A DNA stretch of 53,737 nt from a virus (taxonomy: Duplodnaviria; Caudoviricetes): IMG/VR virus record IMGVR_UViG_3300002092_000056, positions 1 through 53,737 of that record; one strand, given 5' to 3'. The notes beneath the pieces were generated by a model. It was not told the origin of the DNA and did no database searches. It saw nothing but the letters and a program-made list of their open reading frames with translations. Both the position numbers and the translations under genes were made by a program. Shown here piece after piece: positions 28,821-49,200 of the stretch (its first letter is position 1; each line of letters begins with the position of its first letter).

Positions 28821-28977
28821 TGCAGACGAATTTTATTCAGGCTTTAAAGACGCTCTCGACTTTCTTGGCATATCTTGGTCGGATAAACAGTTGGCCGACG
28901 TTTACATAGACGGAAACAAAATTGTATTTGAGCATGAAGGCCGGACCGCGACCATCGAGCTGAAAGAACAAGCATGA
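28813..28977 (+). CDS. 54-aa hypothetical protein
   Basis: MTDADEFYSGFKDALDFLGISW...; ATGA overlap with the polymerase gene. Confidence 0.55.
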   Translation: MTDADEFYSGFKDALDFLGISWSDKQLADVYIDGNKIVFEHEGRTATIELKEQA

Positions 28978-31058: not shown

Positions 31059-31507
31059 TGGACCACGAACAAACCCCTCGCAGCTGCTCCAATTGCAAGC
31101 ACGCCTTTGCTTCGCCTCTTGAGCAACCTTGCCAAAGCTGCTTGCCTCACCCTACACATGTGAATTGGGAGATAAGCGATCACCCTGTAGAAATGTTGGA
31201 TGAGATGCCCACGGCCGCGCCGGGGCGCAAGTTTGATGGCGACAAACGTGACTACACCTTGCTTCCATGGGATGCACTGGAAGAGATTGTAAAGGTGTTG
31301 GAGTTTGGCGCAAAGAAGTATGACCGGGACAACTGGAAACACGTCGACGACGCCCAGCACCGGTACACCAAAGCGGCGTTGCGCCACCTTGTTGCGCACA
31401 CCAAGGGCGAGGCCAACGACGCCGAGAGCGGGCTTTCACACTTGGCTCATCTTGGGTGCTGCGTTTTATTTTTACTTGCCTTGGAAAAAACAGATGACCA
31501 TCCGTGA
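31058..31507 (+). CDS. dATP/dGTP diphosphohydrolase domain protein (DUF5664-like)
   Basis: G.K.D..K....LLP, V..FGAKKY...NW, A..RH, D.ESGL.HLAH..C. Confidence 0.85.
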   Translation: MDHEQTPRSCSNCKHAFASPLEQPCQSCLPHPTHVNWEISDHPVEMLDEMPTAAPGRKFDGDKRDYTLLPWDALEEIVKVLEFGAKKYDRDNWKHVDDAQHRYTKAALRHLVAHTKGEANDAESGLSHLAHLGCCVLFLLALEKTDDHP

Positions 31508-31909: not shown

Positions 31910-34900
31910 TCAGTCCTTCTCGGATCCGCCGACGGTAAGTCCTTCTTTCAGGTTTTCCTTTTTCGTGCGCAGGCGTTCGACCAACTCGTCTGCACGCTTG
32001 GGCGTATAGAACCCGCGCCCCTCGCCCCGGTGCACAGCTTTAATCTGCTTGTCGATTTCGGCAATCAGTTTTTTGCGTTCGCTGTTTGCCATTTGTGCAG
32101 ACACATCCAGGTCAACCGGCCGCACCTTGATGCCGACCGTTTGCATGGCCGCGTACTTGGCTTGGACGGGCTGGCCCATCTTGTCGGTGCCGGTGTACTC
32201 GCGGAAATACAGATCGATGTCTTTGCCAGTGGCGTTGGCCAGCGCGTTCATCACGCGGTCAAAGTGGTAGTTGAACGGAGCCACCGCAGGCGCGGCCTGC
32301 TTGTATGCCCACTCTCCCCACTTCTGACTTTTCTCGGCCGCCGTGTCTAGCTTGGCGCTGACGACGTCCTTGGCCGTGAACAGATCCCGGTTGCCGAGCA
32401 AGGCTGACAAGGTTGAAAACACCGGGCTGTTTGGCGTAAGCCAAGACGGCAACGGCAGGCCACCGGTGTTGTTGACGAAGTCGCCCATGTCGCCGCCTGG
32501 GAACATGCGGCTGATGTCCAAGAACAAAGGCAAGCCAGTCAGCTCATCCATACCAAGGCGGATAACCTTGGGTGTGCCAAAAATGCTGAGGCCCTTTTGC
32601 CATTCAGGCAAATTCTTGCGCTCTTCTTTTTCCAGGCCGTTTGCTTTGGCGCGGAACTCGGGGTCCATGAGGTAGCGCTGGGCAAGCTTCCACCATTCGT
32701 CGTCGCCGTCTCCGCCGCTGGCGCCGGCCGCGATAGCGTAGCCCATGGCATTGACCGCAGCCAAAATGGCAGCCGGACCGGCAAACCGGTGCGGGTGCTC
32801 GGCCAGGGTTTGAGCAATTATGGGCATGGCCTTGTAGGACCATGAGAAAAACGGAATGCCGATTGGCGCATCGCGAATCGTGCGCGCGCCCTTGGGCAGG
32901 TCGTCGTATGTGAAGATGTATTTCTGCGCGTAGTCAACTGCATCATCGACTTCCAAACCACGCTGGCGCGCGTCGCGGTAAATGAGGTATCGGAAATACA
33001 AGTCTTCAGCCTCATACGCCACGGCCAAAGGTTTGCGCAAACCCAAGGACGCAATGTTCCAAGCCAGGTTGCCAAGCTTTGCAGCCTGACTTTCGGTTTT
33101 GCCGGCCAATACTTTGAGCTCATCGGGCAGCATGTTGACCAGCTCTTCTTGGTTGAAAGTGCCCAAGAACAAGCCCGCGTCTTTGGCTTCTTTGACCATG
33201 TCGGAGTTGCTGACCAGATCCTTCAAGGCGCCAAAGTATTTGTGGCCATCCCAATATGAGACCCCGGCAAAGTGCGCCATGGTCACGTTGGAAGCCACGT
33301 TGTTGACGTGAGCCACAGGGTTGAGAACGGTCTTGCCCTCTTTCCATTTTGACAAGCCGGCGCGGTACAGCTTGAGCAGCTCGCCTTGCATGGCTTCGTC
33401 GTTTGAGCTCAGCTGGTCGAGCACTTCCTGCGGCACCCACATGTCAGCCAGGGCGCCGTAGCGTTTGGCGTTGGTGTCTTCGACTTTGGTGGCCGGCACT
33501 TGAGCAAACCCAGGCTGCTCGGTGCGCGAGGCAAGATCGGATGCGATGCGCTCATACAGCCGGCCCAGGGCGATGTCGCGCTGGCTTCGGTTGTAACCCA
33601 TCACAAAGCGAAACATGGCGTCGCGAATCTCGCCCATGTTTTCGCGTTCGTCTTTGGTGTAATCGCGCCACACCATGATCACGTCATGCTTGGCCGAGTC
33701 AAACTTGGCGTCGCGAACTTCCCAGCCTTCGGCCAGCCAGTCATTGAGGTCTTCGACGTTGATTGTCTGGAACAAACCCCGGCTTTTGAGACTGGAGCCG
33801 CCGATACCTTGCATGGTTTTCTGGCGGCCAAGCAAAGCCTTGGCTGCTTTCACCCAGCCTGCGGCTTCAGACTTCAACGTCTGTTCATAAAAGCGCGGCA
33901 GATACTGGCCATCCCACCGGCCGGCGGCTTCTTTGGACAGCATGCCCAGGCGCACCAGCTCATTAGACTGCTCCGTCATCAAGGCCTGCATGGACGCGGC
34001 CAGCTCAAGCACGCGCTTGGGCGGAATCACACCAAAGGCAAGCTGGCCTTCAATGACGTCGCTGATCATTTGGCGTTCGTCTTCTGGCAGCTCTTGCAGG
34101 TTCTTGGCCACGTCGACTGTGAGGTTGCGAGCCTTGGCCACTTCAACTTTCATCTGACGCATGTAGCGCGACAGCTCAGGGCTGACGGGCTTGAGCGAAC
34201 CGATGAGGGGCGTCTTCTCCAAAAGGGTGTTGGCCACATCGCCAACATACCGGTAAGCCTTGGCGCCTGCGCCAAAACGGAACCGGCCCAGGGCGTCGCG
34301 GCTGACGATCCAGCCGTCTGATTCTCGGCCGACTTGTTTGTTGCTGAACGCGATTGGCGCGCCGGTAACATCTGTTTCGGTCTCGCTGAAGGTGGCATTC
34401 TTGGCCAGGACCAGGGGACCAATTTGAATTACCTCGTCGGCCTGCAGCACAGGGCGCATGGTATCGCGATCGTAAAAATAGCTGTGACGGAATGGATCCA
34501 TGCCGACCTGAGTCCAAGCCGGATCTTTCAAGGCAGCGTCTGCGCGCACTTGGGCGGCAGATACACTGATGGGTTTCCATTTCCCAAAAACTGTGGCAAT
34601 TGTGCCTTTGGCTGAGCCTGTTGCAATCTTGGCTGCAGCCTTTTGATTCATACCAAAGTAGGCGTCAGTGATCGCGGCCACGGACTCATAACCAACGACT
34701 TGGCCGGCGTCATACGCGGCTTGCACATTGGTGTTGGTGGACTTGGGCGTGTGCACACTGACAACCCAGGCGTCGTGGTTTTGATAGGACGGTATGTCCA
34801 GGCGCAGCTGGGCAAAGTCTCCGGCTTTCAATTCTTTGGACGGCAGGCCGTACTTGGCCGCCTTTTCAGAACTCTGACCCCGGCCTGTTTCCAAAGCGTA

Positions 34901-36145
34901 AATTGCTTCGGCTTTGGTGGTGATGGCCGGCACAGCAGCATAAGGGTAGACGGGGCGCAGCTCGTCCACCATGCGGTTGTATTCGTCCAGGGTGATTTTG
35001 CCTTCTTGCAGATCGGTTACGCCCTGTTGAAGCGCTTCGGTGCGTTTGAAACGATCGGCGCTTGTGCCCTCGACCCGGCTGGCGGCAGCGTTCTTTTGCT
35101 CTGCCCGGTTTACGGCGTATCCTGGTTGGCCAGGCTCATTCCGTTCTTGAACTGTTCCTTCACCGCTCGGTCGAACGCCTGCGCGTTTGCCCTCGCCTCC
35201 ATTTGTTTTGCTGGAGACATTGGCGCCCGTGGTCGAGTCGTAGACGGTTTGGCTGATCCAGCCTTCGGCAAGGGCTTTGTCTGTTTCATCTTTAAATTTC
35301 TCCAATAAACCTTCGCGAGTAACGGCGGGCACGTCGGCAAGCGTAGAAAACACGGCGTTGTTGTGGCCGCGCGAGTTGTCAATTACAGCGATTTTAAAAT
35401 CGGGGTTGCTGCCAAACGTCTCTTCGAGTTTGCGCACGACTTCGCTGGACCCGGCATGCCCCTTGGCCAAAGCGTCAAGAGGCACAGTGCGGCCCTTCTT
35501 CATGGCCCGGTCAAGCACGCCACCCTTTCGGTTGGCTAAGGCATCGACAGGTTCCCGATACACATAGGCTATGCGGACGCTCTGGTTGTTGTCAAGGGCA
35601 AGCTGGACATTCTTGACCGCCTTGTCGTAGTTTGACAACGTGCCGTCAAGGATTGTGTTTGCCCTGTCCATTTCGGCGCTGAGCAGGTGTTCGGCGCTGG
35701 ACTTACCTGCCCCACCACCGCCGGCCATAAAGACCACCAAGGCCCCGTCAGGTGCGTTGGCCATGCGTTTTTCAAACGATGTCTGGGTAAACTCGCTGGC
35801 GGCTTCGTGCACTTCAAAAGCACGGCTGCGATCTGCGCGGTATTCAGGCGACAGCTCACGCGCCTGGTCGGTATCTAGCAGCTTGCCGCCCTTGGTAGCA
35901 GGCAAAGAGCTGTACTCGCGCACGGCTGCGTCAAAGTCGGAAAAGATTTTTTGTCTCAGGCGGTCATCGAGATTGTCTTGCTTAAGGCTGAACGCAGGCG
36001 CGGCCCCGCCGGGCATCCGCGCAGCAAAGGATGGCAGCAGCTGCTTCAGGCCACCATCCAGCAAGAACGCTTTAAAGGCAGCCTGGCCGGTGATGACCTG
36101 ACGTCCGCCGTCAGCATTTGTGAAAGCGTAGGTACAGGTCGTCAT
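31910..36145 (-). CDS. Large polyvalent internal virion protein 2 (zeta-toxin-like kinase, unknown domain, C-terminal ejection-protein region)
   Basis: FMAGGGGAGKSS, ILDGTL, YVYREP, R...GRTVP; helical C-terminal region typical of podovirus ejection proteins. Confidence 0.85.
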   Translation of the reverse strand: MTTCTYAFTNADGGRQVITGQAAFKAFLLDGGLKQLLPSFAARMPGGAAPAFSLKQDNLDDRLRQKIFSDFDAAVREYSSLPATKGGKLLDTDQARELSPEYRADRSRAFEVHEAASEFTQTSFEKRMANAPDGALVVFMAGGGGAGKSSAEHLLSAEMDRANTILDGTLSNYDKAVKNVQLALDNNQSVRIAYVYREPVDALANRKGGVLDRAMKKGRTVPLDALAKGHAGSSEVVRKLEETFGSNPDFKIAVIDNSRGHNNAVFSTLADVPAVTREGLLEKFKDETDKALAEGWISQTVYDSTTGANVSSKTNGGEGKRAGVRPSGEGTVQERNEPGQPGYAVNRAEQKNAAASRVEGTSADRFKRTEALQQGVTDLQEGKITLDEYNRMVDELRPVYPYAAVPAITTKAEAIYALETGRGQSSEKAAKYGLPSKELKAGDFAQLRLDIPSYQNHDAWVVSVHTPKSTNTNVQAAYDAGQVVGYESVAAITDAYFGMNQKAAAKIATGSAKGTIATVFGKWKPISVSAAQVRADAALKDPAWTQVGMDPFRHSYFYDRDTMRPVLQADEVIQIGPLVLAKNATFSETETDVTGAPIAFSNKQVGRESDGWIVSRDALGRFRFGAGAKAYRYVGDVANTLLEKTPLIGSLKPVSPELSRYMRQMKVEVAKARNLTVDVAKNLQELPEDERQMISDVIEGQLAFGVIPPKRVLELAASMQALMTEQSNELVRLGMLSKEAAGRWDGQYLPRFYEQTLKSEAAGWVKAAKALLGRQKTMQGIGGSSLKSRGLFQTINVEDLNDWLAEGWEVRDAKFDSAKHDVIMVWRDYTKDERENMGEIRDAMFRFVMGYNRSQRDIALGRLYERIASDLASRTEQPGFAQVPATKVEDTNAKRYGALADMWVPQEVLDQLSSNDEAMQGELLKLYRAGLSKWKEGKTVLNPVAHVNNVASNVTMAHFAGVSYWDGHKYFGALKDLVSNSDMVKEAKDAGLFLGTFNQEELVNMLPDELKVLAGKTESQAAKLGNLAWNIASLGLRKPLAVAYEAEDLYFRYLIYRDARQRGLEVDDAVDYAQKYIFTYDDLPKGARTIRDAPIGIPFFSWSYKAMPIIAQTLAEHPHRFAGPAAILAAVNAMGYAIAAGASGGDGDDEWWKLAQRYLMDPEFRAKANGLEKEERKNLPEWQKGLSIFGTPKVIRLGMDELTGLPLFLDISRMFPGGDMGDFVNNTGGLPLPSWLTPNSPVFSTLSALLGNRDLFTAKDVVSAKLDTAAEKSQKWGEWAYKQAAPAVAPFNYHFDRVMNALANATGKDIDLYFREYTGTDKMGQPVQAKYAAMQTVGIKVRPVDLDVSAQMANSERKKLIAEIDKQIKAVHRGEGRGFYTPKRADELVERLRTKKENLKEGLTVGGSEKD
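35110..35289 (-). CDS. Overprinted +1-frame ORF (59 aa), candidate antitoxin for the zeta domain
   Basis: GGAG 10 nt before ATG; ends ...AQAFDRAVKEQFKNGMSLANQDTP; starts at the zeta domain C-terminus. Confidence 0.55.
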   Translation of the reverse strand: MKQTKPLPKAGSAKPSTTRPRAPMSPAKQMEARANAQAFDRAVKEQFKNGMSLANQDTP

Positions 36146-36149
36146 CGGT

Positions 36150-36647
36150 TTACTCTCCCAGCTCTTGGTCGATCAGGAGCATGCCGGCTTTGTCTTGGTC
36201 GACCAGCTCGATGCGGGCCAACAAATCGCCATACTCGCCAACGCTGGTGCGCTGGATCTCCAAGAACTGAAGCAAGAATTGCTGAACCACTGGGTCGCTG
36301 TCAGCCTGGGCGTACCACTTTTTGTAGTCGTTGTACAACTCCAGCTCGGTCTCGTAACCCAGCTCGATGGCGTCGCTTAGCGTTTTGATGGACTCGTTCA
36401 TGGCCTCGACCATGGGGATCTTGGCCTCTGTGCCGACGTCGTTTTGGAACTCGACGTGGCGCTGGTAGTGAGTCAACTCGTCAGCGCTCTCGTTCAAAAA
36501 GAACTTGGCGGCGCCAAAGTAGCCGATGCGCTGCAGCGCGTTGGCGATGTGCTTGTACAGGTTCGATGCGTACAGCTCCGAGTGAACGGCGTCGTCCAGC
36601 ATAGCCTTGTGCTCGGCCGAGATAATCATTTTTGGAAGCATGTGCAT
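36150..36647 (-). CDS. Ferritin
   Basis: ELYASNLY, G.AKFF..ES.DE..H, YETE, FL..FLEIQ, IDQEL; 165-aa four-helix pattern; AAGGA RBS. Confidence 0.88.
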   Translation of the reverse strand: MHMLPKMIISAEHKAMLDDAVHSELYASNLYKHIANALQRIGYFGAAKFFLNESADELTHYQRHVEFQNDVGTEAKIPMVEAMNESIKTLSDAIELGYETELELYNDYKKWYAQADSDPVVQQFLLQFLEIQRTSVGEYGDLLARIELVDQDKAGMLLIDQELGE

Positions 36648-36655
36648 GATGGTCC

Positions 36656-39600
36656 TTAGTCGCAGTTGATTTTAACCAGGCCGGAGTCATCCAGCTCGGC
36701 CAGAATGTCGAGAAAATTGTCTTGCACGAATTTAATTTGTGCGCCGTCCGGCCGTGAAGTAAACGCCGTCTCGGCTTTGGCCTTGGCCATGCCGCGTTTG
36801 TCTAGCCCGGCGAAAACTGATTCTAAATCTGGCGTTGCACCAGAAGCAAGCTGATCGCGCAGGCGCGCTACATCCTCGGTCTTTAATCCGAGGTTGCGAA
36901 TGTCTCCCGCCGAAAGGTTGGCAAGTTCTTGGAGGCTGTTGTAAGCCCGTCGGACCACAGGTGCTGCGTTATCAGCTCCTTGAATCCTTCCAGCCGGTCC
37001 ATTGTCACCGCCTGGGGCCCGTCCTTCTGCACCACGGAATGTATCGCGTTGTTCAGCAGGGTTACCTGTTGCGGCGCCAAAGTAATCTGGTCCGGTTGAA
37101 ACACCTGTCTCACCCGTGCGTACATAGCGTTCAATGACTGATTTTCTGTCGGCATCTTTTCCTTTCCAGCGCATGACCACCACATCAGGATAGCCATCCG
37201 CTTCTTTCCAACCGCCCTTGGCCCAGAAGGCTTTTAGGTCGGACAATTTATTTGCGTCGTAGTAGCTTGCGTCAAACGGGATCGTGCCGATTGTCTCGAA
37301 GCCAAACTGACCATACATTTGGGGCAAGAATCCGTCAGGGAAGCGCTTGCTTTTGACAGCAAACGCATCTAATACGGTGGCGCCCTCAGCGATGGCCTTT
37401 GTAATGATAGCAGGAGTTGCCACTCCTGACGCTCCCGGTTCGTTGTTTGTAACCGACACTACCTCAACTTCGTTGTCCTTTATTCCGTCGACCATGTCGG
37501 CGTACCAGGGCTTACCCCGCTTCAGGCCAAAGAAGATTTGGAGGTTCTTGTTGCCGCCCTCTTTACCAAGCTGGTAAATTTTGAACGACCCGTCCTTGAC
37601 GCCAGCCTTCACCTCGTCGGCGTCGTAAAGCGTCAGGGCCGCAGCTCCTTCATTGGCGCGCAGGGCATCAACGAACTCGGTGGTCGAGATGCCGCCGGTG
37701 GCTTTTGTCTTGCCGGATTCCAGCCACTGGTTGTTGGCCAAGGCCAGCGAGGCCTGAGCCTGGCGCGAGGACGTGATGTTTTCGTAGCCGCCTTCGCCCA
37801 GGGCATCGGCGATTTCCGAAGTAATTTCCTGAATGGGCAAAACCCGATCAAAGGCATACCAAGCGCCAACTTCTTTATTGGCCAGGGTAGGCACCTTATT
37901 ATCAAAGTAATCCCGGAAAATCAATTCGTAGTTGACGCCCTTGGCCAGCTTGCCGACAACGCGCCCACGCAAACCCAGAGGGTAAGAAGGGTGCATCTTT
38001 GTACCAGCCTCGCCCAGCTTTACCGTTGGGTTTGTCTTGTCGATCTCGATCACCAGCATGGTGTCGCCCTGACGGTATCCGGCGTATTCAAGGTCCAAGG
38101 TCTCCCGACGAAAACGGTCCAGGTTGGGCAGGCCCAAAGCCTGCGCCTGTTTCGTCTCCAGCATCTTGGCCAAGGCCCCGCGCTGGTCGAAGGACAGACC
38201 GTCGATGTAGCCGAGAATGCCGGGGCTTTCAAACCCGGGGAAGTCGGGCAACGAGTTTTTGTTTTCCGAGGACTGGACGATTTTGTCGAGCGCCAGCAGG
38301 TTGTCCGGGGTGATGCGCTTGTCCCGCAGGTAGGCTTCAACCGTCTGGATGTAGGCCTGCGACACGGTGGCGTTGGTCAGGTGGCTGTTGTCGTTCATGG
38401 CGTGCACGAGGACGTAGTCCGACTCGTTCACCTTGGCCATGATCTTGGAAAGGGTCGCGCCCCCGCGCACCGCCCACACCACGTTGGCCTTTGTGTTTTC
38501 CGGAAGGCGAACAAAGTTCGGACCGCCCAGCATCTCAACCGGGAACTCCAGTTGGCTGCCGTCGATTCCGGTGTAGCTGATACCCGCTGTGGTCAGGTCC
38601 GCCTTGATCCCCATAACCCGTTTCCCGATTAGGTCACGGATGGTGATGGTGGGGATGCTGGTGAGGTTGCGTTGCTTGGCAGAAAACTTGATGCCGTTAA
38701 GCTCAAGCTCGGTACTTGTTTTCGTTACAGGGACGGGGCCTTGTCGTTCTTGATTTCTCGCACCAACTGCGCCGCCAACCTGAAGGCCTCCTCCCGTTCC
38801 GCGTCCGTGGTAGGCGCGTAAGGCTGCAATGGTGTCTGCTCTTGCTTCAAGGATTTTGTCATAGCTCTCCACCTTTGCCGGGTCGGTGCCCAGGCGTACT
38901 TGGTTAAAGGCCCACAGTGCGGCTTGCACTTGGCGGGGTTCCCATTCTAGCCGAGCGGCAATGATTTTAATCCGCTCTTTGGCAGAGGCGATCTGCCGTG
39001 GGTTGGGCGTCTTCGTGTTGAAGAACAACATGGCAATGTGGCGGTCTACTGCAATGGCGTCAACGTCGCCCTCGTTTGCCTGGCCGTATTGCGAAATTTT
39101 TGCACCCGCAAGTTTTTCATCATTGGCAATGCGGTCCAAGTTTTTAATAACCGCAGGCAGATACCCCGTAAAGGGTCGGCCAGACAGCAGCTGGTCATAC
39201 GCTTTTAACGCCAAGGTGACGTTGCCTTTGACGCCGGTCGCCTGGCTTGTTGCCGAAAGTAATTTTTGAAAAAGGTTTGAATCTTCGCCAAACGTATCAA
39301 CAATTGTTTTTTCGTGTCGGGTATACCAAGTGCGCCAAGAGCTCTGCGAATCAGCGGCGGCGACCAGCTCTTCAATGCTTCGACGGATCCGGCCTTCAGC
39401 CACGGTCTTTTGTTTTGCGCTGAAGCGCACATCGCTGCCAATCCTGGCCAACTCGACGTTGGCGGCTTCGGTCTGCCCGGCCGGAATTTGCAAATTGCCC
39501 ATGCGGACCTGGGCGCCGGGGATGTTTGTCACGTCGATGGCATTGGCTTCGCGTGAGAGTAAACCCTTAGTCAGCGTGGTGGGCGCGGCGACCTGGGGCG

Positions 39601-42600
39601 CGGCAGCAGCCAGGGGTTGTCCGATGGCGCGCACCGGCACGGCCTTGTGCTTTTGGCCAAGCAGCACGACTGCCGATTGATTGTTGCCGAACGGTGCCAT
39701 GTAGCCGTCAAAGCCGGCATTGATCACAGCCGACTCAAACGCGTTGGCGTCGACCTGGGGTTTGATCAGGCGGGATGCTGGGTCGTAGATGTTGTTGAGC
39801 TGAACTTCATGGGCGTGGCCACCAACGCCAGATTCTGGCCGAATGCCGGCGCCCTGGTCGGCGTAGAAGTAGACCCGATTTTTCAGACGCGGGTCTGTGC
39901 TGGCATCCAGACGTGTGGCCTCGGCGCCCTTCAGTCCTCGGCCGTAGTAAGCCCCGCTCAGCGACTGACGGGGAGTTGTTGAGTAATGTCGGCCGACAAC
40001 GGAGACGGCGCCCTCACGGGCTGTACCGTAGCTGGGGATCTCACCGCCCCCACCGAGTGCAGGTATTTGTCCAGCTGTGCCTGCAAGGCCTGGTGCGACT
40101 TCACCTCCTGGGGTGACATTGATTCGTTCATTTGTTTCTCCTTGCTGCTGACTGAAAGCCAGGGGCGCGGTTGCTGGGGCAGACTGTTGAAGTGTGCCGT
40201 TGCGGAACGCCACCATGGCATCACGCGCAACCATCTTAGCTTGATTTAGGTCTTTCAGGTAGCTATCTACCTTGACCGATTCCAGTTCAGTTTTGTCTTT
40301 GACGCCGCGCAACCGGACCAGCATGTTGTCCAAAATGCCAATCCACTTTTGCACGAAACCGCCAAAACCCTTGGGGTCTGCCTTGGCCAGGTCGGCCAGG
40401 AATGTCCGATCCGTGGCGCGGTTGCCCATGAAGTCGGCCGCCATTTCTGAACGCAAAGTCTGGCCAGAAAGAAGTTGCTGTAAGCGTTGTTCCCGCGCAA
40501 CAGGGTCGGCGATGCGGGCTAGTTCTTTCTTGTGCAAAAAGTTTTCAGCGTATGAGCGCTTGCCCGCTTCGGACATATCGTCAAACAAACTGTGAATCGA
40601 TGACACATATTGCTGCGCCGGTGTGTCAGTGCGCCCGGCCTGAGTATCCGCTTCTGCAATACGCTCGGCAATGTGAAAGTTTTCGTGAAAAGCTGTGGGC
40701 GCAATACCTTTTTGAGTTTTGGTATTTATTGCAATTGCGCCGCCCAGTTCAAAACCGTCTGCGCCATTGGGATCAGCATAGGCCACCACGGGGCCTGTGA
40801 CGCCAAGGGCTTTGCCTATGGCGGTGACTGCGGCTTCATCCGATTTTGCGGGCGCGGCAAGGGTTGGGACCGCGACGTTGTGTTGAGCCGCAGTTTCGTC
40901 TAGCCTGGCTTGGAGATCGGCACGGGCCGTGTCTCCAGTTCCCGTAACAGGGGCGTTAGACACCCGCCCTTGGGCGGCGCCCAAACCGAAATTGGTTTCG
41001 GGGGCTGCAGGAGCCACGGCACTTGGCGGCTTGGGGGTGAAAGTGATTGAGCCATCGTCGTTCTCCGTTTGATCAAACTCGCGCGCCAGTGTACGCCGAT
41101 CGCCCAGACGCATCTGCCCCAGCTCAGCCGGAGTCATGGTTTTAACGGCCACAGGAGGCGCTTCAACCACTGGGGTAGGCGCTGCTATGGGCGCGGCTTC
41201 GATCGGGGCTACAGCGGGCGCCTGCTCAGCCTGGCGGGCAGTCAGCTCAATGGCTGCACCGCGCCGGGTCATCGCGTGAACGGACTCGTCATTGACGATC
41301 TCAGTCAGCTTGTCGTCAGTAAGATTCGCAACAGGTTCGCCTTGAATGCTTTGAGGACGGGGTGCATTCAGGCGCAGCTTGTCTAGGCCAAACAGTTTCT
41401 CGGTCTCGGGGTTAACCGCTGGCAACGGGGCCGGGGCTGGCGCAGCAGGCAAGCCGGGAACCGGTGGCAGCTCGGTCAGGATAGCGGGGGCTGGCGCAGC
41501 AGGCAAGCCGGGGATAGGCGGCAGCTCGGTTGGCGCCGTGACCTCGGGCAGAGTAGGCGCGGCAGCGGTTGGGGGAACAATGGTGTTTGGGACCAAAAGC
41601 TCATCCACTGAGCCAGCCATCAGGTTGGCGGCGGCGACCACATCTTCGGCCGAGGTTGCTTTGCCAAACGCTTGCCCGGCCTGCGCCATCTTGGCAGTCT
41701 GCTGCGGCGTGATGATGTTGGCGTCATACGACTGAACATCAAGCAGGCGGCGGGCGACTACGTCAGCCGGAGCGGCATATTGGGCGCCGGCTACGTCTTG
41801 CGCAAAGGCTCCACCAAAAGCGCCAGCGCCGCCTTGAAAAGCTTTGACCGTTTGAGGGATGGCCAATGGGCCTTGCATAAAAGCGCCCAGTACGGCGGCA
41901 TCCGTGACTTGGTCAAGTAAGCCAACATTTTTTCCTTCGACAAATTTGTCAACGCCGTTTTGAAAAATTTGCGTAGTGGCTTCTTCAATCGATCCGGCCA
42001 CGGCCTGAGCGGTAACGACTTTACCGGTTGCAGCCAGGGCTCGACCAACAGATTGAACCGTCGGTGCTTGCAAGCTCAGAGGCAATTTACTCAGCGCAGA
42101 AAAGCTGTGATCAAAAATTCCAAGGGTGGCTTTTTCTCCCAGAATTTCAGCTCCGCCTTTGAGCACGGCGGCCAAAGAACTGTCGCCTTCGCCATAGGCT
42201 TGGCCGGCGGTTTGAGCGCCCATGGCTGGAAGCATGAACGGCCGAGTGACGGGCGCCAAGGCAGCAATAAAATTGCCAACCATTTGCGGAGCTTGTGCAG
42301 TTAAGTTGAGGCCAAGCCAAGAAGCAAATTCGCCTTTGGATACGGCACTAGCCAGGTTTTGTTTTCCGGCTTCCGGCATTGCGCTTTTGGCGCTGACGGC
42401 AAGGCGATCTGCCCAGTCATAAGTAGGTGCCCGGACATTGAAACCTTCAGGCTCAAGCTGTCCGCCAGAAAGCAGGTTGACTGTTTTCGCGGCAAAGTCG
42501 ACCATGGTCGGAATGGCGTTGGCCAAGCCGGACACGATTTGACCAGAGCCAGAAGCCAAGGCGCCAAGAACAGGGTTCTCTTTGGCAAAGGCTTCGGCGC

Positions 42601-43399
42601 TTAAATCTTGACTGGCCAAATTGATTTTGTCGGCCATGGCCGCCAAGCCGGTATCCGCTTGGACCACACCCCGTGTGGCTTCATCCAAGCGCAAAGCTTT
42701 GTCGACGCGCTGGCTTTCGGGTATGTCTTCTCTGACGTCAAAAGGTTTCTGAGAAACGTCTGGAAAAGTAACAAGAGCAGGGGCTTCTGTGCCAAGCTTC
42801 TTGATGCTTGGAGCTGTGCGAGCGGCGTTCGCGATAAGGCCAATCATGCCTTCGCGGCCCTGACTCAAATCTTTGTTGCGAACGTCTTCGGCTTGGACAT
42901 CAGCCAAAAGCCGTTGCGCGGCCTGCGCTTGAGCGTCAGTGCCATTTGCCATTTCAGACAAAGCGTCGCGACGTTTCTCGGCAGGCAGATTGGCAAAGCT
43001 GCTGCGCACCGAGTCGATGTATTCCTGGCGCAGCATACCGCCAGGTTTGCCCAAGCGTTCTTCTTGGTACGCTCGGGTTGCTTGAGGCGTATTCAGCACC
43101 GACTTGACGGACGGCGCGGGCTCCATGCCATAGGGCATTTCAGCGCCGCCCAGGGCGTTGCCCATGGCGTCGGTGTACTCGGCTGCAGCTGGCGGGGTTT
43201 CAGCCCTGGCCACGGGCGCAGCCTCTGGCGGGCGTACATAAGCAGACGCGGGCGCAGAGCCACGGCCTCCGCCAGCCTCTGATGGTTTTACGCCTTCAGG
43301 AAGTTCGCGCCTTGCAGCGTCTTCAACCGCATACCCGGACCACCAATTGTCTTTTGACTCGGTCGCCGGAGCGTAGGATTCCCACCAGTCTTTTGCCAT
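36656..43399 (-). CDS. Large polyvalent internal virion protein 1 (HExxH peptidase, ART-like, HhH glycosylase-like, unknown and GNAT domains)
   Basis: HENFH...E.AAD; HYS...YGRG...RVYFY...GFDG; WY..LLSATS...VDRH...QVQAALW; LDAF...LPQMYGQFGF...PDVVVM. Confidence 0.85.
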   Translation of the reverse strand: MAKDWWESYAPATESKDNWWSGYAVEDAARRELPEGVKPSEAGGGRGSAPASAYVRPPEAAPVARAETPPAAAEYTDAMGNALGGAEMPYGMEPAPSVKSVLNTPQATRAYQEERLGKPGGMLRQEYIDSVRSSFANLPAEKRRDALSEMANGTDAQAQAAQRLLADVQAEDVRNKDLSQGREGMIGLIANAARTAPSIKKLGTEAPALVTFPDVSQKPFDVREDIPESQRVDKALRLDEATRGVVQADTGLAAMADKINLASQDLSAEAFAKENPVLGALASGSGQIVSGLANAIPTMVDFAAKTVNLLSGGQLEPEGFNVRAPTYDWADRLAVSAKSAMPEAGKQNLASAVSKGEFASWLGLNLTAQAPQMVGNFIAALAPVTRPFMLPAMGAQTAGQAYGEGDSSLAAVLKGGAEILGEKATLGIFDHSFSALSKLPLSLQAPTVQSVGRALAATGKVVTAQAVAGSIEEATTQIFQNGVDKFVEGKNVGLLDQVTDAAVLGAFMQGPLAIPQTVKAFQGGAGAFGGAFAQDVAGAQYAAPADVVARRLLDVQSYDANIITPQQTAKMAQAGQAFGKATSAEDVVAAANLMAGSVDELLVPNTIVPPTAAAPTLPEVTAPTELPPIPGLPAAPAPAILTELPPVPGLPAAPAPAPLPAVNPETEKLFGLDKLRLNAPRPQSIQGEPVANLTDDKLTEIVNDESVHAMTRRGAAIELTARQAEQAPAVAPIEAAPIAAPTPVVEAPPVAVKTMTPAELGQMRLGDRRTLAREFDQTENDDGSITFTPKPPSAVAPAAPETNFGLGAAQGRVSNAPVTGTGDTARADLQARLDETAAQHNVAVPTLAAPAKSDEAAVTAIGKALGVTGPVVAYADPNGADGFELGGAIAINTKTQKGIAPTAFHENFHIAERIAEADTQAGRTDTPAQQYVSSIHSLFDDMSEAGKRSYAENFLHKKELARIADPVAREQRLQQLLSGQTLRSEMAADFMGNRATDRTFLADLAKADPKGFGGFVQKWIGILDNMLVRLRGVKDKTELESVKVDSYLKDLNQAKMVARDAMVAFRNGTLQQSAPATAPLAFSQQQGETNERINVTPGGEVAPGLAGTAGQIPALGGGGEIPSYGTAREGAVSVVGRHYSTTPRQSLSGAYYGRGLKGAEATRLDASTDPRLKNRVYFYADQGAGIRPESGVGGHAHEVQLNNIYDPASRLIKPQVDANAFESAVINAGFDGYMAPFGNNQSAVVLLGQKHKAVPVRAIGQPLAAAAPQVAAPTTLTKGLLSREANAIDVTNIPGAQVRMGNLQIPAGQTEAANVELARIGSDVRFSAKQKTVAEGRIRRSIEELVAAADSQSSWRTWYTRHEKTIVDTFGEDSNLFQKLLSATSQATGVKGNVTLALKAYDQLLSGRPFTGYLPAVIKNLDRIANDEKLAGAKISQYGQANEGDVDAIAVDRHIAMLFFNTKTPNPRQIASAKERIKIIAARLEWEPRQVQAALWAFNQVRLGTDPAKVESYDKILEARADTIAALRAYHGRGTGGGLQVGGAVGARNQERQGPVPVTKTSTELELNGIKFSAKQRNLTSIPTITIRDLIGKRVMGIKADLTTAGISYTGIDGSQLEFPVEMLGGPNFVRLPENTKANVVWAVRGGATLSKIMAKVNESDYVLVHAMNDNSHLTNATVSQAYIQTVEAYLRDKRITPDNLLALDKIVQSSENKNSLPDFPGFESPGILGYIDGLSFDQRGALAKMLETKQAQALGLPNLDRFRRETLDLEYAGYRQGDTMLVIEIDKTNPTVKLGEAGTKMHPSYPLGLRGRVVGKLAKGVNYELIFRDYFDNKVPTLANKEVGAWYAFDRVLPIQEITSEIADALGEGGYENITSSRQAQASLALANNQWLESGKTKATGGISTTEFVDALRANEGAAALTLYDADEVKAGVKDGSFKIYQLGKEGGNKNLQIFFGLKRGKPWYADMVDGIKDNEVEVVSVTNNEPGASGVATPAIITKAIAEGATVLDAFAVKSKRFPDGFLPQMYGQFGFETIGTIPFDASYYDANKLSDLKAFWAKGGWKEADGYPDVVVMRWKGKDADRKSVIERYVRTGETGVSTGPDYFGAATGNPAEQRDTFRGAEGRAPGGDNGPAGRIQGADNAAPVVRRAYNSLQELANLSAGDIRNLGLKTEDVARLRDQLASGATPDLESVFAGLDKRGMAKAKAETAFTSRPDGAQIKFVQDNFLDILAELDDSGLVKINCD
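36883..37155 (-). CDS. Overprinted +1-frame ORF (90 aa) after the GNAT domain, candidate immunity protein
   Basis: AAAGGAAAAG-ATG; MPTENQSLNAMYARVRQVF...LEGFKELITQHLW. Confidence 0.55.
   Translation of the reverse strand: MPTENQSLNAMYARVRQVFQPDQITLAPQQVTLLNNAIHSVVQKDGPQAVTMDRLEGFKELITQHLWSDGLTTASKNLPTFRRETFATSD
38725..38862 (-). CDS. Overprinted +1-frame ORF (45 aa) after the HhH-like domain, candidate immunity protein
   Basis: AGGTGGAGAGCT-ATG; MTKSLKQEQTPLQPYAPTTDAEREEAFRLAAQLVREIKNDKAPSL. Confidence 0.55.
   Translation of the reverse strand: MTKSLKQEQTPLQPYAPTTDAEREEAFRLAAQLVREIKNDKAPSL
39958..40131 (-). CDS. Overprinted +1-frame ORF (57 aa) before the ART-like domain, candidate immunity protein
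   Basis: AAGGAG-AAACAA-ATG; MNESMSPQEVKSHQALQAQLDKYLHSVGAV... Confidence 0.55.
   Translation of the reverse strand: MNESMSPQEVKSHQALQAQLDKYLHSVGAVRSPATVQPVRAPSPLSADITQQLPVSR
41433..41530 (-). repeat. Intragenic tandem duplication (54-nt period)
   Basis: TELPP(I/V)PGLPAAPAPA twice; ggggctggcgcagcaggcaagccggg twice. Confidence 0.8.
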
Positions 43400-46239: not shown

Positions 46240-49200
46240 TTAATAGCCGCCGTAGTTGTCGTAGGTGTTGTTGTCAGGAGGAGCAGAGGTAGTAGTCGCC
46301 GCTTTAGGCGGTGCTGCAATCAACGGCACGGTTGTATTTTGGAAAGCGTTTGACCATTTCAAAGTTGAGTTGGCTGTATCAATTACGTTTTGAATAGCAT
46401 TGGTTTTTGCCGTGCCATCCAAACTGCCATCGGCCTGAATGTTGTTTATCGCGGTCAGCGTGTTCTGTGCGGTCTGCAGCGCAAAGCCCTTGGACACGGT
46501 GGCCTGCTGAAATTGATTCTGCAAAGTCGCAATCGCAGTTTGCTGCGTGCGGTCCAGCCCGGCCTGGGTAGACTGGAACGACTGTTGCAAGCCAAGCAGA
46601 TCTTTGGCCGATGTGATCTGAGTGTTGGCAATGTTGGTCTGCTGAGTGCGATCCAAAGCTGATTGCGCAGTTTGAAAATCTTGCTGTGCTTTTTGCAAAG
46701 TGGACTGAGCCGTCAAGCTCTTGTCGGTAATCGCTGTCTGCTGCGCACGGTCCAGGGCTGTCTGAGCCGACTGGAATGTTTGCTGAGCAGTTTGCAGATT
46801 TGATTGCGCGGTTGTCTGCGCAGTCTGCATTGTGGTTTGCTGCTGACGGTCGAGTTCTGACTGGGCGCCGGCAAAATCCTGTTGTGCTTTTTGCAAAGCC
46901 TGCTGAGCGCCAATGCTCTTGTCGGTCATCGCTGTTTGCTGCGCACGATCCAAAGCGGACTGGGCGGTCTGGAACTGCTGCTGCGCGCCCTGCACGTCTT
47001 TCTGCGCAGTGATCTGCAAGTTGGCGATCGCGGTCTGCTGAGCCCGATCTAAGCCCGACTGAGCGCCGGCAAAATCCTGTTGTGCTTTTTGCAGCGCAGC
47101 CTGTGCGCCAATGCTCTTGTCGGTCAAAGCGGTTTGCTGTGCACGATCTAGCGCGGTCTGAGCCGATTGGAAATTTTGTTGTGCAGTCTGAACACCAGTT
47201 TGATAGGTCTGCTGTGAAGTCTGCAACGCTGTTTGTTGCGAACGGTCCAGCTCTGACTGGGCACCGGCAAAGTCTTGCTGTGCTTTTTGCAGCGCAGCCT
47301 GAGCGGCCAAGCTCTTGTCAGTTTGCGCGGTCTGCTGTGCACGGTCCAAGGCCGTCTGCGCAGCCTGGAATTGCTGCTGAGCGCCCTGCACATCTTTCTG
47401 GGCGGTGATCTGCAAGTTGGCGACCGAGGTCTGCTGCTGACGGTCAAGCTCTGACTGGGCACCGGCAAAGTCTTGCTGTGCTTTTTGCAGCGCAGCCTGA
47501 GCGCCTAAGCTCTTGTCAGTGATCGCGGTTTGTTGTGCGCGGTCCAGGGCTGTCTGAGCCGACTGGAATTGCTGTTGAGCGCCTTGAATGTCTTTCTGCG
47601 CGGTGATCTGCAATTGAGCGACACCGGTCTGCTGCTGACGGTCGAGCTCAGCCTGGGCACCAGAGAAGTTCTGTTGCGCGGTCTGCAAGGCTTGCTGGGC
47701 AGCCAGGCTTTTGTCAGTGATTGCGGTTTGCTGCGCACGGTCCAGCGCGGTTTGCGCGGCCTGGAATTGCTGTTGGGCGCCCTGCAGGGTTTGCTGTGCA
47801 GTGATTTGCATGCCGGCAACAGAAGTCTGCTGCTGACGGTCGAGTTCGGCTTGGGCACCGGAAAAGTCTTGCTGTGCCTTTTGAAGCGCGGCCTGCGCGG
47901 CCAAGCTCTTGTCGGTCGTTGCTGTCTGCTGCGCACGGTCCAGCGCGGTCTGTGCTGCTTGGAATTGCTGCTGCGCGCCTTGAATATCTTTTTGCGCAGT
48001 GATCTGCAGCTGGGCAACGCCGGTCTGCTGCTTACGGTCGAGCTCGGCTTGGGCGCCAGAGAAGTTCTGTTGCGCGGTCTGCAAAGCCTGCTGGGCGCCA
48101 AGGCTCTTGTCAGTCAAGGCTGTCTGCTGCGCGCGATCCAGCGCTGTCTGCGCGGCCTGGAACTGCTGTTGTGCGCCTTGCAAAGTCTGCTGAGCGGTGA
48201 TCTGCAAAGTAGCAACGCCGGTCTGCTGCTGACGGTCGAGCTCAGCCTGAGCGCCAGAAAAGTCTTGTTGCGCTTTCTGAAGCGCGGCTTGCGCGGCCAG
48301 GCTCTTGTCAGTTGTCGCTGTCTGCTGCGCACGGTCCAGCACTGTCTGCGCTGCTTGGAATTGCTGCTGTGCGCCCTGCAGGGTTTGCTGAGCTGTGATC
48401 TGCAACTGGGCAACGCCGGTCTGCTGTTGGCGATCGAGCTCGGCCTGAGCTCCTGCAAAATTCTGTTGCGCAGTTTGCAAAGCCGCCTGAGCAGCGATAC
48501 CTTTATCGGTCTGAGCGGTTTGCTGCGCACGGTCCAGCGCTGTCTGCGCTGCTTGGAATTGCTGCTGTGCGCCCTGCAGGGTTTGCTGAGCTGTGATCTG
48601 GACGACGTTTTGGCCAGCTGTGAATTGCTGTTGGCTTTCCTGCAAAGCAGTTTGTTGGCCACGATTCAAAGCCTGCTGAGCCGCGTCAAAGTTTTGCTGC
48701 GCAGTCTGCAAGGCCTGCTGAGCACCGATGCTCTTGTCGGCCAAAGCGGTTTGCTGGGCGCGGTCGAGCTGAGTTTGCGCAGCCTGGAAGTTCTGAGTCA
48801 GCTGGGCTTGCTGAGCCGTAAACGCCTGGGCGCCGGTCTGCAAACCAAATTGATTTTGCGCATTGGCATTGAACTGGCCGCCAGTGTTGATGGCCTGTTG
48901 ATTGGCCAAGGCCCGGTTGGCGTAGGTCGTTGCGTCGGCATTGGCGATTGGGACCGCCTTCTCCAGCATGGCAGCCACGCCAGCGCCCTGAGCCATGGAG
49001 CTGTTGACCAGGCCCCGCGCGGCCATGCCTTGGCTGGCCTGTGTGCGAGCCAGCTGCATGAGCTGGCTGTCTTTGGATAGGATGCTGCCCAGCTGACCAG
49101 CTGTGGTCTCTGTGGGCGCGTTGACGGTGCTTTGTTGGGTGCCGAACTGGGCAGCGGTGGCCGGGCTTGTTGCCGAGGCGTTTGTGGCGGGGATAAGGGA

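Follow-up and report, generated by a model that had tools for sequence, protein, structure and literature searches.

The window, the whole stretch of 53,737 nucleotides of phage DNA analysed here, contains two giant genes, G2247 and G1411, with a ferritin-like gene between them (Pfam Ferritin, E 4.4e-17) that is listed as context only (Table 1). G2247 has 210 homologues at E <= 0.001, one of which is named 'Large polyvalent protei...' at its source, and PF06414, PF18760, PF18857 and PF23802 are present among its relatives. Four small ORFs, n1 to n4, lie inside the two genes at or near domain boundaries.

Table 1. Features of the locus, with coordinates as positions in the window and residues numbered in the host protein.
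Feature	Host residues	Coordinates	Strand	Remarks
G2247 (host gene 1)		36656..43399	minus	2247-codon single open frame; multidomain 'polyvalent' virion protein carrying n1, n2 and n3
G1411 (host gene 2)		31910..36145	minus	1411-aa polyvalent protein with N-terminal zeta-toxin-like kinase; carries n4
Ferritin-like gene		36150..36647	minus	between G2247 and G1411
n1 (57 aa)	G2247 aa 1090-1148	39958..40131	minus	linker between HExxH-motif module and ART-fold-like domain
n1 Shine-Dalgarno AAGGAG		40138..40143	minus	6 nt before ATG
'HYS' domain, possibly ART fold	G2247 aa 1122-1328	39416..40036	minus	AF2 mean pLDDT 81.5
DUF7178-like module	G2247 aa 1340-1512	38864..39382	minus	HhH-like in the earlier note; n2 starts at its end
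n2 (45 aa)	G2247 aa 1513-1559	38725..38862	minus	DUF7178-like module end and the Gly-rich linker after it
Conserved module	G2247 aa 1557-2085	37145..38731	minus	C-terminal end was GNAT in the earlier note; n3 starts at its last residues
n3 (90 aa)	G2247 aa 2082-2173	36883..37155	minus	after the aa 1557-2085 module
Zeta-toxin-like kinase domain	G1411 aa 60-290	35276..35968	minus	Walker A GGGGAGKS
n4 (59 aa)	G1411 aa 286-346	35110..35289	minus	directly after zeta kinase domain

The domain labels given in the earlier note held in part. G1411 matches Pfam Zeta_toxin (E 7.1e-14, above the curated cut-off) and Phage_L5_gp82, the zeta domain profile finds 6eph_B, 'Zeta_1 toxin', in the PDB (E 4e-15), and the Walker A motif is invariant (G83-S90 in the alignment). 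The ART label has weak fold support: the best Foldseek rows of the HYS domain against the PDB are weak (E 0.03-1) and include an 'anti-CRISPR protein' chain (6kyf), the MbcT toxin, the diphtheria toxin catalytic domain, Tpt1, tankyrase and AvrPphF, and a Pfam search with this domain gave no ART match. Neither GNAT nor HhH was borne out by Pfam, NCBIfam or PDB profile searches. The second of these corresponds to a module resembling DUF7178 (PF23802, E 5.4e-4, 20.4 bits, under the cut-off of 27), and the module at aa 1557-2085, about 70% identical across at least 30 proteins and seven loci, matched nothing in Pfam, NCBIfam or PDB-sequence searches.

The geometry of the small ORFs was as the earlier note had described it. 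All four are on the strand of their host gene, offset by +1, begin with ATG, end at a stop codon and follow a Shine-Dalgarno (SD)-like site, those of n2, n3 and n4 being GGAG, AAGGA and GGAG at spacings of 4, 4 and 10 nt. The late genes of the phage itself carry AAGGAG or AAGGA 5-8 nt ahead of ATG. The host frame at the nested ORFs does read as Gly/Arg-rich linker, and the n1 stop codon falls within the first strand region of the HYS domain. The claim that the products are amphipathic helical proteins was sustained for n3 only, which AF2 models as a three-helix bundle (mean pLDDT 64.7).

Open +1 frames are common in this phage. Across the window's 44 greedy ORFs (46,755 nt), there are 40 +1 ATG-ORFs of at least 45 aa, 11 of them in G2247 and 5 in G1411, versus only 10 in the +2 frame; an open +1 frame alone therefore means nothing here. 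As to whether such ORFs exceed codon-shuffled controls, the two host genes differ. Synonymous shuffles of G2247 gave 6.8 +/- 1.8 +1 ORFs with any start versus 11 observed (fraction at or above the observed count, 0.017) and 2.0 +/- 1.3 with an SD-like site versus 8 observed, a count reached by 0/300 shuffles under an SD pattern defined after the four sites had been seen, and the G1411 count was no different from its shuffles. Several non-conserved +1 ORFs also bear SD-like sites. Both this and the genome-wide openness of the +1 frame would fit ORFs that are untranslated, chance frames in G+C-rich, Gly/Ala/Pro-rich linkers with constraint at the level of the nucleotides (RNA structure or ribosome pausing), an explanation that we consider highly improbable in view of what follows.

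Among the +1 ORFs compared, only n1-n4 retain frame, start and stop in relatives. By tblastn n1 is present in 37 IMG/VR loci; its 30 aligned variants are 53-58 aa long with a fixed stop position, and the open frame and start are kept in 22/30 by strict column and in all listed rows uncut by a contig end. In four metagenome loci the n2 ATG falls at the identical host site (VESYD) and the +1 frame is open, with differing host modules downstream (2/2 by strict column). Frame and ATG of n3 are retained in 6/6 homologous loci, which represent about four lineages. The open frame and start of n4 are kept in 5/8 by strict column, and in 13/13 fetched zeta-bearing loci, across which the zeta domain is 44-72% identical, that domain is followed by an SD-preceded +1 ORF of 58-60 aa. 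This ORF is there whatever domain comes next, and it is absent from the two loci (L017 and L037) whose aligned stretch has no zeta motif. In the sequences compared, the neighbour that n4 accompanies is thus the zeta kinase, and for n2 it is the DUF7178-like module.

In contrast, eight +1 ORFs elsewhere in the two genes kept open frame and start in 0/13, 0/17, 0/33, 11/31, 5/39, 0/15, 0/6 and 0/6 relatives, a comparison confined to ORFs with homologue coverage, which four further G1411 +1 ORFs lack. Longer alternative starts of n1 and n3 did so in 6/33 and 0/6. The SD is retained in most homologues of the nested ORFs, and most n1 homologues have AAGGAG or AAAGG(A/G) 5-8 nt upstream, in the style of the late genes. 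The expectation in the earlier note that homologues would conserve the +1 ORF, SD and ATG was thus borne out for n1-n4, and the control ORFs failed it. Peptide length, start and stop stay constant at host identities as low as about 45%, which speaks against untranslated chance frames, as does the loss of frame or start in the controls.

Related peptides also occur in the protein database, where profile searches found one called protein for n2 (E 8.7e-15), 15 n4-like called proteins, of which 11 are exactly 60 aa, and 41 proteins of the n3 family at E <= 0.001 among 1.84 billion representatives, some of them fused in-frame to other sequence. In the bacterial contig L072 an intact n3-like gene stands alone, its former host frame carrying two stops. 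Both the database families and the persistence of an n3-like copy where the host frame has decayed argue against untranslated ORFs. When 313 SD-started nested ORFs from all fetched loci were clustered without bias, n1-n4 were recovered, and so were further protein-like families in which identity in the nested frame equals or exceeds that in the host frame (for example 35 loci, 0.64 versus 0.52). By-product clusters have host identity far above nested (for example 0.85 versus 0.60). At the junction between the HExxH module and the aa 1557-2085 module, the linker is short in seven loci and holds no nested ORF, so not every domain has a partner.

Selection appears to act on the nested frame in parts of each ORF. 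As pN/pS is biased in overlapping frames, we relied on the contrast of core and edge and not on absolute values: in the cores (about codons 1-30 of n1 and 21-66 of n3) pN/pS in the nested versus the host frame was 0.50 versus 1.83 for n1, 0.57 versus 1.02 for n2, 0.47 versus 2.48 for n3 and 0.70 versus 1.11 for n4, and at the edges the pattern flips for n1, n2 and n3 (host 0.29, 0.42 and 0.27) and the frames of n4 are about equal (host 0.68, nested 0.76). Inside each nested ORF the codon-position pattern passes between frames, with nested position 2 least variable and nested position 3 most variable. In n3, host differences of about 0.15/0.10/0.50 at positions 1/2/3 become 0.42/0.44/0.15 and 0.26/0.27/0.06, a flip unique within aa 1540-2247, and the same flip is found at n1. 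Such codon-periodic variation in the nested frame is a further point against constraint on the nucleotides.

Host synonymous variation is suppressed at all four ORFs, as the earlier note had anticipated, with observed/expected ratios of 0.33, 0.56, 0.46-0.66 and 0.63 for n1, n2, n3 and n4. The dip at n1 is the deepest of G2247 (z -10.4), that at n2 has z -4.2 and n4 is the minimum of G1411 (z -4.1), though these z-scores are inflated because the homologues are related to each other (sd of z along G2247 = 2.3). Synonymous dips occur elsewhere without an ATG ORF, as at host aa 976-1010 (z -6), which would suit the untranslated explanation. An RNA-library contig spans 36771-39424 at about 89% identity, with DNA carry-over as a possible source.

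A second alternative is programmed +1 frameshifting, by which truncated polyproteins with short alternative C-termini would be made and the SD-like site would be a stimulator and not a start. Internal SD-like sites are known frameshift stimulators in prfB and dnaX, and the shared +1 offset of all four ORFs would fit. We nevertheless regard this as very improbable. A +1 stop lies directly ahead of the ATG in six n1 variants and 2-7 codons ahead of it in n2, n3 and n4 homologues, too close for a shift site to fit in between; the start codon is itself conserved, with GTG replacing ATG in three n1 variants; and neither slippery nor stop-codon contexts were seen in the host frame. The standalone n3-like gene and the calling of n4-like ORFs as 60-aa proteins also count against it.

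Given the conserved frame, start, SD and stop, the codon-position switch, the synonymous dip and the failure of the controls, we judge n1-n4 to be coding. This comparative evidence upholds, for all four, the proposal of selection on the nested frame and of real genes at domain edges; the case is strongest for n1 and n3 and good for n4, with n2 the most thinly supported. On these sequence comparisons, n1 and n3 are very probably real protein-coding overlapping genes, n4 is probably one as well, and for n2 the same is fairly likely.

What the products do is less certain. On balance, it seems somewhat probable that the overlapping genes are genuine and that each product binds the adjacent domain as its cognate partner. 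Co-folding covered one pair, n4 and the zeta domain, with our own alignments as input, and in this check, of a kind that the earlier note suggested, the pair passed: ipSAE was 0.82, 0.81 and 0.82 versus 0.00 for the best of three controls, on a measure whose mark is reached by 58/80 solved complexes and 2/110 mismatched pairs, although the domain was excised from the polyprotein, so that surfaces may be exposed, and epsilon/zeta complexes are already solved, so that the pass may reflect likeness. The runs share at least 85% of contacts (partner pLDDT 68-69), and the predicted n4 contacts include chain residues 88-103, adjoining Walker A (chain 83-90).

That each nested product is specifically an antidote of the adjacent domain, the central proposal of the earlier note, we hold tentatively. 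The pairing of n4 with zeta, the co-fold and the standalone n3-like gene plausibly favour it. Plausible points against it are that no Pfam, PHROG, NCBIfam family or Atlas cluster matched the n1-n4 peptides, and hence no homology to known antitoxins was found (an n3 fold search likewise gave no match), that the GNAT and HhH labels are unconfirmed and the ART label weak, that some junctions have no nested ORF, and that self-protection late in a lytic cycle is a presumed need. It is also possible, if somewhat doubtful, that the genes are real and their products are folding or packaging chaperones, capsid-loading scaffolds, regulators or anti-defence proteins born in tolerant linkers. All of the coding evidence fits such roles equally well, linkers are places where genes can readily arise, many of them hold nested families, some junctions lack nested ORFs, and predicted binding of n4 to zeta suits a chaperone as well as an inhibitor. 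The n3-like domains fused in-frame to unrelated sequence or alone in a bacterial chromosome fit a more general function. However, n4 is strictly paired with a known toxin family that a small helical antitoxin normally keeps in check, a pairing most simply read as inhibition, and the predicted contacts adjoin the nucleotide-binding loop.

The host proteins resemble the polyvalent proteins of phages and conjugative elements, for which zeta-toxin-like kinases are noted by Iyer, Burroughs, Anand, de Souza and Aravind 2017 (PMC5512222). Like those, they are giant phage multidomain proteins with peptidase-like, ART-like, zeta-kinase and other 'conflict' domains, and G2247 homologues carry ART-PolyVal (PF18760) and LPD38 (PF18857). 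The main text of that paper uses none of the words 'overlapping', 'frameshift' and 'linker' (0 occurrences) and does not describe nested genes or in-gene partners, and our literature searches found no description of such nested genes in polyprotein linkers.

With the type II epsilon/zeta (PezA/PezT) systems, n4 and its host share a zeta-family kinase and a small helical protein predicted to bind near the P-loop. The classical epsilon/zeta antitoxin is a separate upstream gene; n4, in contrast, lies within the gene for a 1411-aa virion protein, where its +1 frame overprints the linker and, before it, the 3' end of the sequence for the kinase domain, and it has no detectable sequence similarity to known antitoxins. 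Embedded genes are known in phages, such as lambda Rz1 inside Rz (+1 frame), whose products are functionally coupled, and phiX174 B in A and E in D. Like Rz1, B and E, the nested ORFs are complete small genes with their own start signals in another frame of a larger gene. Unlike them, several occur per host gene, each linked to one domain and placed in the stretch between domains, and families with this arrangement are found again across many related phages. In polymorphic toxin cassettes (CdiA-CT/CdiI, Rhs, colicins), modular toxin domains are swapped together with a small cognate protector, the immunity gene is separate and downstream, and orphan protectors occur in genomes. The standalone n3-like gene is comparable to these orphans, its protector role being putative. 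Here the putative partner lies instead inside the toxin-like gene, and delivery would be by phage ejection and not by secretion.

Under the favoured reading, each small protein would be made from an SD and ATG of its own, in the +1 frame of a linker between domains. On the comparative evidence, selection in these stretches acts on the small +1 protein and the host frame need do no more than stay open, so that it reads as Gly/Arg/Ala-rich filler. Each small protein most likely binds the neighbouring domain as its cognate partner, and the best-supported version of such binding is that of an inhibitor or antidote that would silence the enzyme during late polyprotein synthesis. The antidote would be left behind once the polyprotein unfolds for packaging or ejection, and domain and nested partner would move as one cassette when these polyproteins are reshuffled.

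The virus record of 53,737 bases is complete or nearly so (CheckV 98%), and it carries two giant genes, G2247 and G1411, on its minus strand. G1411 opens with a zeta-toxin-type kinase domain and joins it to an L5_gp82-like domain, and G2247 holds an HExxH-motif module (motif at about aa 905), an ART-fold-like domain, a DUF7178-like module and a conserved 530-aa module. In both, several unrelated conflict-type domains are united in one phage polypeptide. Among the 210 homologues of G2247 (E <= 0.001), one is named by its source 'Large polyvalent protei...' and many carry ART-PolyVal, LPD38, Zeta_toxin or DUF7178. Given this name and these domains, we place G2247 and G1411 in the class of polyvalent proteins as defined by Iyer et al. 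2017 (PMC5512222). As their operon also holds tail-spike and virion-like genes, we infer that both proteins are virion cargo, injected together with the DNA. The operon is headed by a 1028-aa protein without a Pfam or PHROG match. On the other strand, a dATP/dGTP diphosphohydrolase N-terminal domain adjoins the gene for DNA polymerase A; enzymes of this type accompany 2-aminoadenine (Z) genomes.

Features of the window and of related loci (L handles denote related loci or contigs)
Feature	Location	Strand	Remarks
G2247	36656-43399	-	2247 aa
G1411	31910-36145	-	1411 aa
Ferritin-like gene	36150-36647	-	PF00210, E 4.4e-17; between both polyvalent genes, same operon
n1	39958-40131	-	In G2247, before the ART-fold-like domain
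n2	38725-38862	-	In G2247, after the DUF7178-like module
n3	36883-37155	-	In G2247, after the aa 1557-2085 module
n4	35110-35289	-	In G1411, after the zeta kinase domain
Candidate fifth nested +1 ORF	40900-41055	-	51 aa; GGAG 8 nt upstream
Stretch of reduced synonymous variation	40370-40474	-	Host aa 976-1010
[IV]-x-F-S-x-K-Q type motifs	39380-39420, 38670-38700, 34330-34360	-	At domain boundaries, just past linkers
Operon-heading protein	46240-49326	-	1028 aa
dATP/dGTP diphosphohydrolase N-terminal domain	31058-31507	+	PF18909, E 1.4e-31
DNA polymerase A	28974-31058		
Standalone n3-like ORF	L072:4001-4390		129 aa, with SD
Nested +1 family, 63 aa	L002:7033-7221		35 loci in all; in the Gly-rich linker that follows a further conserved module; identity nested 0.64, host 0.52
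Nested +1 family, 69 aa	L002:2668-2874		8 loci
Nested +1 family, 73 aa	L019:6828-7046		4 loci

The earlier note had proposed that four small ORFs, n1 to n4, lie inside these two genes. All four are found on the minus strand, offset +1 to the reading frame of the giant gene (the host frame), each with an ATG, a stop and a Shine-Dalgarno (SD)-like site. The late genes of this phage have AAGGAG or AAGGA 5-8 nt before the ATG, and the sites upstream of the nested ORFs match this style. Compared with shuffled controls, the two genes differ. SD-started +1 ORFs exceed the shuffles in G2247 (8 observed versus 2.0 +/- 1.3, with 0/300 shuffles reaching 8), although the loose SD pattern used was written after the four sites had been seen; with any start, the figures are 11 and 6.8 +/- 1.8. 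However, the count in G1411 shows no excess over shuffles, and +1 ATG-ORFs of at least 45 aa are common, with 40 in 44 ORFs (11 in G2247, where the +1 frame is open across most of the gene length, and 5 in G1411). Because the SD pattern is post hoc and G1411 shows no excess, the single-genome statistics are suggestive at most.

Related loci were collected with several queries: the whole of protein P0001 (6 loci, matched only in the ART-like domain), alignments of the aa 1557-2185 module (7) and of aa 823-1340 (48), the n2 module (4 metagenome loci, with no match among viral contigs) and the n3 family (one bacterial contig). In a further search, the n3 family alignment returned only contigs already in the set, and proteins P0133 and P0129 had no match as contig-search queries. 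A blastn search of the 5.2-kb region against phage GenBank records gave one trivial match.

In these diverged homologues the +1 ORF is kept with its start and stop, for n1 in 37 loci, n3 in 6, n4 in 13 and n2 in 4, while control +1 ORFs fail to show this. By tblastn, the n1 peptide lies in the +1 frame in all 37 loci. Its 30 aligned variants (consensus M..QEVKTYQ.LQRQLD..L.KMGAVRPQ.TEQPAKA.SP) are 53-58 aa long with a fixed stop position, most have AAGGAG 5-8 nt upstream, and three start with GTG rather than ATG. At n3, 6/6 loci have an open +1 frame and retain the ATG, the homologues carry ATGATGATG directly after a +1 stop, and the peptide read in +1 is both better conserved and more regular than the host frame. 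The claim that the host frame degrades into Gly/Arg-rich filler was borne out at n3, where six loci were compared. An SD-bearing +1 ORF of 58-60 aa corresponding to n4 is present in 13/13 fetched zeta-domain loci, in which the zeta domain is 44-72% identical, and it begins and ends at the same host positions even though the downstream host domain varies by locus. In loci L017 and L037, the aligned stretch has neither the zeta motif nor an n4-type ORF. On short contigs, gene callers had already predicted 15 n4-like proteins, and 11 of these have a length of exactly 60 aa. The n2 ATG falls on the same host codons (VESYD) in all four metagenome loci, which also have an open +1 frame and a common motif, MT.S.K....Y.P.S..EK.EAF.L...L..E.K; one further called protein was found. 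As the downstream host modules differ among these loci, n2 travels with the upstream DUF7178-like module. More distant relatives (L002-L007) have ATG-started +1 ORFs of 63-66 aa upstream of the homologous ART-like domain, with no detectable similarity to n1.

The control table comprised sixteen first-ATG +1 ORFs and the starts first proposed for n1 and n3, under strict column mapping, which host-frame indels blur in the n1 linker. Frame and start are kept in 22/30 homologues for n1, 2/2 for n2, 6/6 for n3 and 5/8 for n4. Longer alternative starts retain both in 6/33 (n1) and 0/6 (n3), and eight other +1 ORFs do so in 0/13, 0/17, 0/33, 11/31, 5/39, 0/15, 0/6 and 0/6; four further +1 ORFs of G1411 had no homologue coverage. 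Chance alone is therefore rejected as an explanation, as +1 ORFs are common but the conserved ones are the four that had been flagged, possibly joined by the candidate fifth. This candidate is open in 30/31 homologues, with the start kept in 11/31; the synonymous ratio of the host frame there is 0.70. In a cluster of three loci its nested identity is 0.70 versus 0.61 for the host frame. Because its peptide is rich in Pro and conservation extends to the host frame itself, we treat it as a candidate. Synonymous variation is also reduced (ratio 0.68-0.76, z to -6.0) at host aa 976-1010, where 83 codons of the +1 frame run without a stop but also without an ATG.

Purifying selection in the nested frame and lowered synonymous variation in the host frame, both anticipated earlier, are seen at all four ORFs, with weaker signals at n2 and n4 and among homologues that are not independent. 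The synonymous scan has its deepest dip in G2247 at n1 (observed/expected 0.33, z -10.4, against an sd of 2.3 for z over the whole gene), followed by n3 (0.46-0.66, z -4.6) and n2 (0.56, z -4.2), and n4 is the minimum of G1411 (0.63, z -4.1). Along host aa 1540-2247, differences at codon positions 1/2/3 are usually about 0.15/0.10/0.50. The pattern flips only at aa 2095-2155, that is at n3, to 0.42/0.44/0.15 and 0.26/0.27/0.06, and there the +1 identity (0.50-0.76) exceeds that of frame 0 (0.32-0.57). When the DNA is threaded on the peptide alignments, a hand-over between frames is visible within each nested ORF: the host pattern rules where the ORF overlaps a conserved host domain, and the nested pattern, with position 2 the least and position 3 the most variable, takes over in the linker. 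In the cores, Nei-Gojobori pN/pS is 0.50, 0.57, 0.47 and 0.70 in the nested frame of n1 to n4, and the host-frame values are 1.83, 1.02, 2.48 and 1.11. The edges show the reverse for n1, n2 and n3 (host 0.29, 0.42 and 0.27), and for n4 the frames are about equal (host 0.68, nested 0.76). Since the homologues are interrelated and overlap biases pN/pS, we place weight on the internal contrast between core and edge. Contigs from public runs include relatives in three DNA runs of later years and in one RNA-library run. From the latter, which is labelled a metatranscriptome, a 13-kb contig covers 36771-39424 at about 89% identity, cover that is not evidence of transcription or translation. Among the differences listed for it, small indels within n3 (37084-37096) sum to +3 bases, so both frames are kept.

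A +1 peptide with conserved ends might instead arise by programmed +1 frameshifting from the host frame. That reading is disfavored, as many homologues have a +1 stop only 0-7 codons ahead of the conserved start, which leaves no uninterrupted path; for n1, the stop directly precedes the ATG in six variants. The position of these stops favors independent initiation, and most homologues keep the SD and an ATG or GTG. Taken together, the comparative data confirm at the sequence level that the four ORFs behave as conserved overlapping genes overprinted on inter-domain linkers, far more than chance would produce.

Such genes are likely not confined to the window. In the fetched loci, host ORFs of at least 700 aa contain 313 nested ORFs that have an SD-marked start and reach at least 40 aa (285 in +1, 28 in +2), and all of these were clustered. 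The clusters include n1 (38 loci), n4, n3 and n2, and the analysis yields further protein-like families with nested identity equal to or above host identity. Those of 63, 69 and 73 aa are absent from the window and look like ordinary proteins written over low-complexity host sequence. By-product clusters have host identity well above nested, for example 0.85 versus 0.60. Because unbiased clustering finds these further families, hidden linker genes appear to be a recurrent feature of the polyvalent-protein family.

The labels first given to the neighboring domains fared unevenly. The zeta assignment is sound: with PF06414 the domain reaches 52.1 bits (cut-off 22.3), a profile built from the domain matches 'Zeta_1 toxin' in the PDB (E 4e-15), and the Walker A motif GGGGAGKS is intact and invariant in 13 sequences. 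The domain after n1 (aa 1122-1328) has a confident AF2 fold (pLDDT 81.5). Its best Foldseek matches are weak (E 0.03-1, TM 0.3-0.45) and comprise 6kyf ('anti-CRISPR protein'), MbcT, the diphtheria toxin catalytic domain, Tpt1, tankyrase and AvrPphF, all of which we take to be ART-fold proteins. Pfam gives no match for G2247 aa 1100-1340, and PF18760 (ART-PolyVal) in relatives marks a different domain. The GNAT label for aa 1557-2085 found no match in Pfam, NCBIfam or PDB sequence or profile searches, and the resemblance is presumably at motif level only; the HhH label was likewise unconfirmed by Pfam and NCBIfam. The protein P0004, a 1558-aa variant 98-99% identical to G2247, does not have aa ~110-261 and 1355-1866 of the window protein. 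Missing with the latter range are the DUF7178-like module, together with n2, and the beginning of the module that follows, a clean in-frame deletion that shows cassette-wise loss. At domain boundaries of many loci a motif of [IV]-x-F-S-x-K-Q type recurs (RFSAKQ, KFSAKQ and AFSNKQ in the window; RFAKKQ, QFSKR and SFSQR in relatives), which could be a processing site.

Outside the giant gene, a search of 1.84 billion representatives with an n3 profile finds 41 proteins at E <= 0.001 (7 of them below 1e-30). Some have a length near 90 aa, and in others the n3-like domain is fused in frame to other ordinary-looking sequence; the longer ones belong to no Pfam family. On a Pseudomonadota MAG contig (L072), a standalone intact n3-like ORF, 55% identical over 85 residues, lies between a Crp-like regulator/hemerythrin and serS (seryl-tRNA synthetase). 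The phage host frame is still recognizable around it, broken by two stops, and the gene is possibly a captured 'orphan' copy. The AF2 model of n3, built from 7 sequences (mean pLDDT 64.7), is a three-helix bundle (H4-19, H28-45, H52-73) with a disordered tail; it is on this tail that the host frame imposes its constraint. Foldseek returned no meaningful match for this model. Long n3 homologues share 'GAVR/GAIR' in their C-terminal tail with n1, but a homology between the two was dismissed (hhalign, 5 columns, probability 1.1).

The nested peptides have no match in Pfam, PHROG or NCBIfam, and Atlas look-ups gave no usable match; for n4, examined for homology to epsilon/PezA antitoxins, none of the first three gives any match at E <= 1. 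The zeta domain, cut out of the polyprotein, was co-folded with n4, both as our own alignments. The ipSAE values are 0.82, 0.81 and 0.82, with the best control at 0.00, and the mark applied is reached by 58/80 solved complexes and 2/110 mismatched pairs. As epsilon/zeta complexes have been solved, the high score may reflect likeness to them. Contacts agree by at least 85% between runs (partner pLDDT 68-69) and join n4 residues 19-53 with chain residues 74-79, 88-103, 126-136 and 189-207, the second of which adjoins Walker A (83-90). As a prediction, the modelling supports binding of n4 to the zeta kinase domain.

The earlier note had gone further, with each toxic or host-takeover domain carrying its own antidote overprinted at its edge, so that toxin and antidote would move as one in-frame cassette. 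Two of the ORFs are linked to a particular domain, n4 to zeta and n2 to the DUF7178-like module upstream of it, but the junction between the HExxH and aa-1557 modules has no nested ORF in seven loci. That the nested products are cognate binders of some kind is, in our judgment, slightly favored. An antidote role is the best-supported specific function and remains tentative; the peptides may instead be chaperones or serve another role. The full picture, in which the Gly/Arg-rich linkers are shadows of a small-gene layer rather than simple spacers, domain and edge-overprinted antidote pass through inheritance, shuffling and loss as one indivisible cassette and bacteria may capture antidotes alone, seems to us rather unlikely as a whole. 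Under it, nested antidotes captured by bacteria, as perhaps on L072, would provide ready-made immunity against injected phage effectors.

In searches of open-access papers and preprints, we found no paper on nested genes in polyvalent proteins, nor one in which a toxin gene has its immunity gene overprinted on it. As the nested genes lie wholly inside a longer ORF, gene callers miss them, and a whole class of small phage proteins, in short, conserved families, is consequently missing from annotation; what are described as 'low-complexity linkers' of polyvalent proteins are currently misread. Should the products prove to be cognate inhibitors, toxin and antidote would be arranged as a pair that recombination cannot separate, and this would explain how enzymes of the zeta-kinase type are synthesized late without harm to phage production. 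Each nested peptide would then offer a direct handle on the function of the uncharacterized domain beside it.
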